A DNA stretch of 64,000 nucleotides from a plasmid, in assembly GCF_055900595.2 (NCBI RefSeq), contig NZ_JBVWEU010000002.1; one strand, written 5' to 3'. A program made the position numbers and the translations under genes. Every line of letters begins with the position of its first letter. Within the stretch, counting starts at the first letter, position 1. The notes beneath the pieces were generated by a model that worked only from the letters and a program-made list of their open reading frames with translations, ran no database searches and had not been told where the DNA came from. Positions 47,241 through 47,929 of the stretch are shown piece after piece.

Positions 47241-47929
47241 AAGAGCAACAAAACAAAAAATATAAGAAGAACAAACACCTTATCGATTGGCATAGGGGGT
47301 AGCACAAGACTGCGCCCTGCTACACCACTCAGCATGCAGCTCCAACCGGGCAGTTCGAGAAGTTGAGGTTATGCGAGTCAAGGGAAGCCTAAAGCCAGCT
47401 CGCCTTGTTCCATCGCACCTCATATCAGATTCTTATTCATCGGTTCACGGGGTCATTCCGTGCTTCCTTCCCACGCTCGGTCACCCTCACACAGTTGCAC
47501 TTCCTTTCGCTCGCTGTAGTCAGCTCGCGGGAGGGCTTTCACCTCCAAGATCGCGCCCATGCTGGGCGCACACATCCTACACACCCTGAAAAACGTGGAG
47601 GATGTCTAATTTATATTCCCCAGAACGTCAGATTAATAGCGTTTTTGATGTCATTTTCCCGGTGGCTGAAATCAGCTACTTCTTCTCCTATAACGGAGAC
47701 CGGCACACTGGCCATATCGGTAGTCATCATGCGCCAGCTTTCCCCCCCGACATGCACCACCGGGTAAAGTTCACGGGAGACCTTATCTGATAACAGACGT
47801 GCACTGGCCTGGGGACCATAATCCGTCGTGTCAGCGCCAGTGATATAAGACAGTAATTCACCATTTGGATGGTCCGCTCCACCCAACATATTGTTTCCTT
47901 GAGGTTCTCACACCAGAAAGGACATCAGC

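Follow-up and report, generated by a model that had tools for sequence, protein, structure and literature searches.

The interval between sopA and an IS21-like istA remnant on an F-like plasmid is probably a stack of dead genetic elements

Results

We analysed a 689-bp segment (positions 47241-47929) of a plasmid sequence of 64,000 nucleotides (contig NZ_JBVWEU010000002.1; hereafter the window). The segment separates the promoter region of the F-type partition gene sopA from the first istA-like ATG of an IS21-like element at 47930, and a first-pass annotation had considered it a decayed gene, the terminal arm of the insertion sequence (IS) or a non-coding RNA. The flanking partition genes, sopA (45982-47157) and sopB (45011-45982), are both on the minus strand, as are all features of the segment except the IS arm. 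Read from right to left, the segment contains the left end of an IS21-like element, the 3′ part of ccdB, a short spacer, a palindrome, the two ends of a group II intron and a stretch of F-like DNA. By comparison with related sequences nearly every base can be assigned, the spacer at 47607-47610 in part only, and the segment is explained fully by already known kinds of elements. We put at about 0.9 the probability that it is a stack of dead remnants (an IS21-type end, the 3′ part of ccdB and a group II intron that has lost its interior and keeps a fragment of its target site) produced by ordinary plasmid decay.

In agreement with the first-pass annotation, a listing of open reading frames (ORFs) between 44 and 51 kb revealed no intact gene in the segment. 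From the sopA promoter region to the istA ATG there were only short overlapping ORFs on both strands, the longest being of 120 aa (plus strand, TTG start, 47405-47767), 92 aa (minus strand, 47611-47889) and 72 aa (plus strand). The three plus-strand ORFs that were tested (120, 72 and 62 aa) had no Pfam match, and all three run antisense to the ccdB and intron remnants. None of the ORFs was a full-length homologue of anything; truncated ccdB and intron pieces were found instead. When the whole window was scanned with Rfam at gathering threshold, no family reached its gathering score within the segment.

At the right-hand side, alignment of 47770-47990 with the complete elements ISEc62 (L011) and IS21 (L012) showed unrelated sequence up to 47828 and near identity from TGTCAGCGCCAGTGATATAAGAC at 47829 to the istA ATG, the onset of homology being TGTCAGCGCC, base 47829 exactly. 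The 101 bp at 47829-47929 (plus strand) are the left terminal arm of an IS21-like element, comprising the inverted repeat and the 5′ untranslated region, which were collinear with IS21-family members from the first base. ISEc62 was the nearest relative, with 91.7% identity over 47829-48687 compared to 85% for IS21 (both from E. coli genomes). In contrast to these complete elements, the copy in the window is cut off after about 860 bp, near 48687, and lacks istB and the right end. Its istA (47930-48687) is split into several frames, including ORFs of 74 and 227 aa, and the NCBI annotation pipeline PGAP describes it in the identical plasmid p135-3 (NZ_CP080263.1) as frameshifted, with an internal stop and incomplete. 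The proposal that the whole 690 bp is an extended arm of this IS had in its favour that the segment adjoins istA and that IS21-family ends are long, with multiple repeats. It was refuted because homology with the complete IS21 and ISEc62 starts only at 47829; the sequence to the left consists of ccdB, palindrome, intron and F-like DNA unrelated to either element. Hence the arm is real for 47829-47929 and nowhere further left. A kinship with the IS ends at 16888 or 19395 was not borne out either, since nothing else in the window resembled the arm or the region 47241-49100: there was no second copy of this IS end in the window at up to 3 mismatches, and no internal repeat of 47241-49100 was found anywhere in it.

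Next to the arm, 47609-47828 aligned by BLASTN with positions 4648-4868 of the F plasmid (NC_002483; L004) at 91% DNA identity, which corresponds to ccdB from nt 88 to the stop codon plus 2 nt. What is left of this gene (also called letD), which encodes the F-type CcdB gyrase toxin of the ccdAB toxin-antitoxin module, is its 3′ 218 bp (47611-47828, minus strand), that is, codons ~30-101 and the stop codon at 47611-47613. The IS21-like insertion severs ccdB on its 5′ side at codon 29/30, and a 1-nt deletion near codon 35 shifts the frame. The 92-aa ORF at 47611-47889 (minus strand) is consequently a chimera of ~20 codons of the IS arm, ~5 frameshifted ccdB codons and CcdB residues 35-101. Its first ~25 residues are read-through of the arm and of the frameshifted codons, and residues 26-92 are 93% identical (62/67) to residues 35-101 of F CcdB. 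The first-pass annotation had seen no recognisable family in this ORF; it matched Pfam CcdB (PF01845) with an E-value of 6.7e-15 and 55.6 bits, against a cutoff of 28.6, over profile positions 38-101 of 101, and PGAP already lists a pseudogene, "CcdB family protein; incomplete; missing N-terminus", in the 100%-identical plasmid NZ_CP080263.1. The remnant has the same orientation to sopA as in F, but it lacks codons 1-29, is frameshifted, is not followed by resD, and has no F ccdA match anywhere in the window. A complete frame of ~101 aa was not found. The idea of a decayed gene was correct for 47611-47828 and for no other part of the segment.

An active CcdB-like toxin, truncated or chimeric, or some other small protein is in our view highly improbable as the product of the 92-aa ORF. 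The frame is open, has an ATG inside the IS arm and retains 67 C-terminal residues of high identity to CcdB, which include those that contact gyrase. However, the N-terminal 34 residues of the 101-aa CcdB fold have been lost and replaced by unrelated read-through, the sequence is frameshifted relative to F, PGAP classes it as a pseudogene, and the module is stably carried in at least 27 plasmids despite there being no ccdA in the window.

On the sopA side, the window from 44731 to 47280 showed 92% identity to the sopA-sopB-sopC genes and upstream region of F, the upstream region being aligned with F and with two other plasmid records, L003 and L007 (pESBL3171-IncF). The F-like DNA at 47241-47285 (minus strand), just upstream of the sopA promoter/operator, serves as the 3′ exon of the intron. 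BLAST delimited a non-F stretch at 47281-47608, homology to F resuming only at 47280. According to the F record and PMC4398462, a RepFIA block has the order ccdAB-resD-ori2/repE-incC-sopABC; only the ccdB remnant and sopABC were present here. The 2.77 kb that lie between ccdB and sopA in F (4869-7637: resD, ori2, repE and incC) are missing and have been replaced by 325 bp (47286-47610). The interval from the ccdB stop to the sopA upstream region now consists of a 4-bp spacer, a 35-nt palindrome and a 286-nt intron skeleton. The first two bases of the spacer (ATTA, 47607-47610, minus strand) are F-like, corresponding to the AT of the resD start codon in F, and F homology ends at 47609. No homology to ccdA, resD or repE was detected in the 64-kb window, and the sole trace of F 4869-7637 was an iteron-like match of 53 bp at 63488-63540. 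The first-pass annotation had placed here the breakpoint at which the RepFIA context was lost. The loss of RepFIA is confirmed, but the location was imprecise: F-like DNA runs on to 47828, and there are two separate lesions, the replacement of resD-incC and the IS21-like insertion inside ccdB.

Transposon mutagenesis of the multi-replicon IncF plasmid pEC958 showed that the RepFIA replication genes are dispensable whereas sopAB is required (PMC4398462). The only selected function nearby would be the sopABC partition system, which has its own promoter, and replication is presumably carried out by other replicons on the plasmid. This lineage has retained an F-type sopABC but no longer has the RepFIA replication functions, multimer resolution by resD or the addiction module CcdAB.

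The 286 nt at 47286-47571 (minus strand), which had no earlier annotation, proved to be the remains of a group II intron, made up of a 5′ piece of 178 nt and a 3′ piece of 110 nt. The 5′ piece (47394-47571, minus strand), which starts with GTGCGCCCAGCATGGGCGCG, is the 5′ part of domain I and corresponds to nt 1-178 of a full-length intron of 1,833 nt in E. coli Z1323CEC0003 (L014, 3529-5361) with 92.7% identity. The 3′ piece (47286-47395, minus strand), ending in ...CTATGCCAAT, corresponds to nt 1720-1828 of the same intron with 87% identity. It begins with the last five codons and stop of the intron-encoded protein at 47378-47395 (GCT TTA GGC TTC CCT TGA, ALGFP*) and continues into eroded versions of domain V (~47322-47355) and domain VI (~47286-47321). 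Nucleotides 179-1719 of ~1,833 (~1.54 kb, 84%) have been deleted, with a 2-nt GC microhomology at the junction. The deletion took away the greater part of domain I, all of domains II-IV and almost the entire reverse-transcriptase (RT) gene.

Comparison with other copies supported this identification. In sensitive BLASTN searches the first ~180 nt gave matches of 77% identity in plasmids of Sinorhizobium, Pseudomonas, Vibrio, Burkholderia and others, with E-values down to 5e-30. In Vibrio pVb0267 (L008) a full-length intron starts with the matched stretch, and an annotated ltrA follows 200 bp further downstream. Full-length introns with RVT_1 and GIIM reading frames were matched in three records (L008, L010 and L014). 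The L008 protein carries RVT_1 and GIIM domains, and the L014 intron has both in two split reading frames. The boundaries of the relic (5′ GTGCG at 47571 and 3′ ...GCCAAT at 47286) coincide with those in L005 (a P1-like phage-plasmid), L008, L010 and L014, and the 3′ boundary, ...CCCTATGCC(G/A)AT, is common to L003, L005, L007, L008 and L010. The flanks downstream of that boundary are unrelated, except that L003 and L007 share the sopA-upstream flank of the window. In L007 and L016 the stretch equivalent to the 3′ piece extends upstream into a maturase-domain fragment; when plasmids were searched with the L007 fragment by tblastn for a closer full-length intron, only nine weak or partial matches were obtained. 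The nearest full-length copy that we found is in E. coli chromosomes (L014), not in plasmids.

An ORF-less derivative of ~476 nt of the same intron occurs in P1-like IncY phage-plasmids or prophages (L005 5036-5511; L015 3536-4011), and ~34 E. coli records carry this P1-type form. By the Rfam models it retains intact domains I-III (103 and 47 bits), but it has lost the RT gene and, from domain V, the first 4 nt; it follows a perfect 13-bp palindrome, in a segment that replaces P1 DNA next to lydA.

The intron relic belongs to class C (IIC), an assignment made through its relatives, namely the L008 protein and the insertion sites of L008-L010. The L008 protein, which has RVT_1 and GIIM domains only, matched the RT of GsI-IIC with an E-value of 1.3e-128, compared to ~1e-37 for the two other group II intron proteins among the matches listed, 6me0 (IIB) and LtrA (IIA). 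The next-best matches, 7uim, 5hhl and 5hhj, are other group IIC intron proteins. L008, L009 and L010 lie directly after hairpin-plus-T-tract terminators, and the copy in the window lies after a palindrome; insertion just after terminator hairpins is a habit of class C introns (PMC1702495; PMC7306698). Like the class C introns B.h.I1 and GsI-IIC and its nearest relative L014, the relic has 5′ GTGCG and 3′ GCCAAT ends and a site directly after a DNA hairpin; unlike them, it has lost 84% of its length and the RT gene, and its domains V and VI are eroded.

The state of decay was evident from both family models and folding. The Rfam model group-II-D1D4-3 scored 21.6 bits on the relic, below the gathering score of 32, with only the first half aligning, at high posterior probability; the same model scored 103 bits in L005 and 122 bits in L008. 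D1D4-1 was matched in L005 and L008 and was absent from the window. A permissive Rfam scan of 46900-48300 gave this sub-threshold D1D4-3 match only, and a scan of L007 gave nothing. The domain V/VI family Intron_gpII is uninformative here, as it did not match the intact L008 intron over its whole length. The 74-nt stretch of the relic corresponding to domains V and VI folded at -22.7 kcal/mol (z +0.37) and formed neither domain. In contrast, the equivalent stretches of L008 and L007 folded at -47 to -49 kcal/mol (z about -5.2) into the canonical shape, in which a pair of helices with a 2-nt bulge precedes a further helix bearing a bulged TA. The relic thus has neither the complete set of domains I-VI nor folded domains V and VI nor an intron-encoded RT/maturase. 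Because its Rfam scores are low and the domain V-VI fold seen in its relatives is lost, it should be neither a ribozyme nor a retroelement. The earlier suggestion of a non-coding RNA holds historically only, for the dead ribozyme fragment at 47286-47571, and for no other part of the segment.

Could the relic and its palindrome nevertheless be maintained as a functional non-coding RNA or cis-element, for instance a sopA leader, an insulator or terminator, or an ORF-less mini-intron spliced by a maturase in trans? The same internally deleted relic lies upstream of sopA in other lineages at ~92% identity (L003), so it has persisted through some divergence, and the palindrome is able to form a hairpin. 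However, the 3′ half of domain I and domains II-IV are gone, mutations have destroyed the helices of domains V and VI, the Rfam scores remain under the gathering threshold and no terminator-like site was found, the palindrome having no T-tract. Moreover, IS3 insertions in L003 and other plasmids truncate the relic further while sopA is kept, and substitutions between lineages break pairs without compensation. We therefore regard a present function of this kind as very unlikely.

Upstream of the intron 5′ end, and abutting it, lies the 35-nt imperfect palindrome GACATCCTCCACG-TTTTTCAGG-GTGTGTAGGATGT (47572-47606, minus strand), which folds at -12 kcal/mol (z -2.3); the P1-type copy, with its perfect 13-bp stem, folds at -23.5 kcal/mol (z -6.2). 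Similar sequences were found directly before introns of the same kin in the P1-like phage-plasmids (L005, L015), in an IncF plasmid (L006) and in the chromosomal L014. In the last of these the palindrome-like sequence is the end of an insQ/TnpB pseudogene element (IS609-type, IS200/IS605 family). By hand count, 25 of 30 positions of the window palindrome are shared with this IS609 right end, which bears the full-length intron; the IS609-type right end, ATCCACG-loop-CGTGGAGGATGTCA, agrees with the window in the stem CCACG...CGTGG and in the tail AGGATGT. L005 has a copy of that IS without the intron, the end of which reads ...ATCCACGCCCTTCGGGGCGTGGAGGATGTCA. Because homology among more than 5,000 E. 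coli records ends 2 nt past GGATGT, and because the 3′ exon of L014 and L005 starts with CA and completes GGATGTCA, the intron appears to lie within the right end of an element of the IS605 family, 2 nt from the terminus, ~30 nt of the target being retained in the window. The palindrome would be a relic of the DNA target of the intron, akin to the hairpin that IS200/IS605 (IS609/TnpB) elements have subterminally at their right end. An IS200/IS605 right end consists of a hairpin and the tail GGAGGATGT(CA) after tnpB; the window has the hairpin and the tail, but differs in having no tnpB and in its left arm, which is extended by GACATCC.

Three other explanations of the palindrome were discarded. 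An origin of the extra left arm from an IS609-like left end was rejected on comparison with the left end in L017, which is unrelated. A terminator role was rejected since there is no T-tract and no terminator-like call. Insertion of the intron after a hairpin in the F-like DNA upstream of sopA was unconvincing, the nearest inverted repeat of F ending ~20 nt away.

Another possibility is that palindrome and intron arrived behind ccdB together, as an independent mobile unit, through an alternative 5′ splice site further upstream or by single-strand transposition of the IS200/IS605 type, and are not debris of a larger deletion. In two unrelated backbones (F-like here, P1-like in L005 and L015) foreign DNA begins at the same base, that of GACATCC, and P1 homology ends 4-7 nt before this base, just past a TTAC. 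In vitro, splicing of class C introns can start from 5′ splice sites that lie before a stem-loop (PMC1702495). Yet the boundary is common to two contexts only, and in L014 and the nine genome loci described below the hairpin is the ordinary right end of TnpB elements. In the P1-like plasmids the right flank is foreign as well, which indicates replacement of a segment rather than clean insertion; P1 phages were also uninformative as an empty site, their homology ending directly in front of the palindrome. Deletions are known to end preferentially at palindromes. All in all, we consider a discrete mobile unit unlikely.

When 100,044 species genomes were scanned for the exact pattern AGGATGT joined to GTGCGCCCAGCATGGGCGC, the same arrangement was seen outside E. 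coli. The junction of ...GAGGATGT with GTGCGCCCAGCATGGGCGC, in which the tail GAGGATGT is followed directly by GTGCG, was found at nine loci from several phyla (L019-L027): in three Proteobacteria/betaproteobacterial metagenome-assembled genomes (MAGs), a Burkholderiales MAG, a Methylotenera MAG, Pantoea, Azotobacter vinelandii, a Methylacidiphilaceae MAG and a Verrucomicrobia bacterium. In seven of the nine (L020-L026) the 5′ flank had the form ...GGAATC-stem-loop-stem-GAGGATGT, shortened to ATC in L024, and the hairpin stems varied in sequence with complementarity kept; L019 and L027 lacked the GGAATC motif. At the four loci with enough upstream DNA (L020, L021, L022 and L025) an adjacent frame carried OrfB_IS605, Cas12f1-like TNB or HTH_OrfB_IS605 domains. 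Thus tnpB lies directly upstream at a minimum of four of the nine loci and also in E. coli (junction region at L014 3440-3530), and at most of the loci the junction coincides with a right end of IS200/IS605 TnpB elements. These positions suggest that the intron lineage has a real target preference for the right ends of TnpB transposons.

Discussion

We propose that the segment records three layers of mobile-element activity, which would have left inert debris on the RepFIA maintenance block. The block would once have read ccdA-ccdB-resD-ori2/repE-incC-sopA-sopB-sopC. The intron would originally have been lodged in an element of the IS200/IS605 family (IS609/TnpB-type), at its right end, and this element would have lain close to sopA on the upstream side. 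Such an element is suggested at this place because in three diverged lineages (the window, L003 and L007/L016) the F-like DNA that adjoins the intron 3′ end starts at the same base. A later deletion may have brought the end of ccdB up against the foot of the right-end palindrome, removing the RepFIA replication genes. The intron lost its interior at the GC microhomology, its domains V and VI eroded, and an ISEc62-like, IS21-type element inserted into ccdB at codon 29/30. No working protein or ribozyme is expected from the segment.

Several points weigh against this account. The 92-aa chimeric ORF could be translated, and the intron relic could be transcribed. The order of events (insertion of intron and IS605-type element, deletion of resD-incC, internal deletion of the intron) was deduced from comparisons between sequences only, and no plasmid turned up in which sopA is preceded by an intact intron or an IS605-type element. 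The window lacks GTAGGAATC, which forms the more upstream portion of the IS605-type right end. Finally, the palindrome is lengthened by an extra left arm, GACATCC, which is shared with the P1-like phage-plasmids from the same starting base; its source may be end-points of palindrome-stimulated deletions, a right-end variant with a longer stem, or co-mobilisation of hairpin and intron.

For the intron itself we suggest, tentatively and with less than even confidence, that a class C lineage homes to the right-end hairpin of IS200/IS605 TnpB elements, ~2 nt from the terminus, and rides on the transposon, the copy in the window being a fossil of this habit. The guide RNA of TnpB is thought to derive from that right-end region, and it might be that splicing restores the guide RNA, or that palindrome and intron move as a unit. 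An analogy is offered by IStrons, in which a self-splicing group I intron is physically coupled to the right end or guide-RNA region of IS605/IS607 TnpB transposons (bioRxiv 10.1101/2023.11.20.567912). Here, in contrast, the intron is of group II class C, has its own reverse transcriptase and lies 2 nt inside the transposon end, the coupling being one of position only. Within the limited library that we searched, which gives no proof of novelty, there was no description of this remnant or of a link between group II introns and IS605 right ends. The association with TnpB right ends, which lies mainly outside the window, would be of interest to specialists in mobile elements if confirmed.

For annotation, the gap is better labelled as an IS21-like left end, a ccdB pseudogene and a group II intron remnant than as a candidate gene or RNA. 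The composite junction can also be used as a lineage marker. The entire 689 bp was present with at least 99.6% identity in 27 plasmids of the public plasmid database PLSDB, among them pEB2 of the enterotoxigenic E. coli (ETEC) strain B7A, from hosts that include humans, poultry, cattle, pigeons and a baboon; pieces of it matched more than 3,500 PLSDB plasmids. The 218-bp stretch 47395-47612, which covers the palindrome and the 5′ piece of the intron, occurred at 99% identity or more in 33 RefSeq E. coli records and at 95-99% in four others. Plasmids that bear the module were typed as IncFIB or as IncFIA/FIB/FIC.

Some further features were noted around the segment. At 47172-47200 the sopA promoter/operator lacks a 19-bp stretch (GGTTTTTTGATGACTTTGCGA-like, with one CTTTGC motif) that is found in F and L007; the deletion is common to the L003 lineage. 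In L007 (1673-2873) a truncated repE-like ORF is inverted relative to sopA and lies beside a resD-like fragment and a longer intron fragment, which is an independent rearrangement of the same ccdB-sopA interval. The iteron-like match at 63488-63540 had 79-81% identity to the ori2 region of F (6029-6081) and, inverted, to F 7567-7619, which adjoins the sopA homology on its upstream side; the match is probably due to iteron-like repeats that belong to a different replicon. Gathering-level Rfam matches to AS-traI, AS-traG, the FinP/traJ 5′ UTR and sok were located at 1837-1913, 10476-10561, 34229-34340 and 37955-38126, and the window is an F-like conjugative plasmid with a transfer region and a hok/sok module. 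Beyond the istA remnant lie an acyltransferase gene (49077-49559), a DUF6404 gene and the genes for colicin Ia immunity and colicin Ia (50567-52804).

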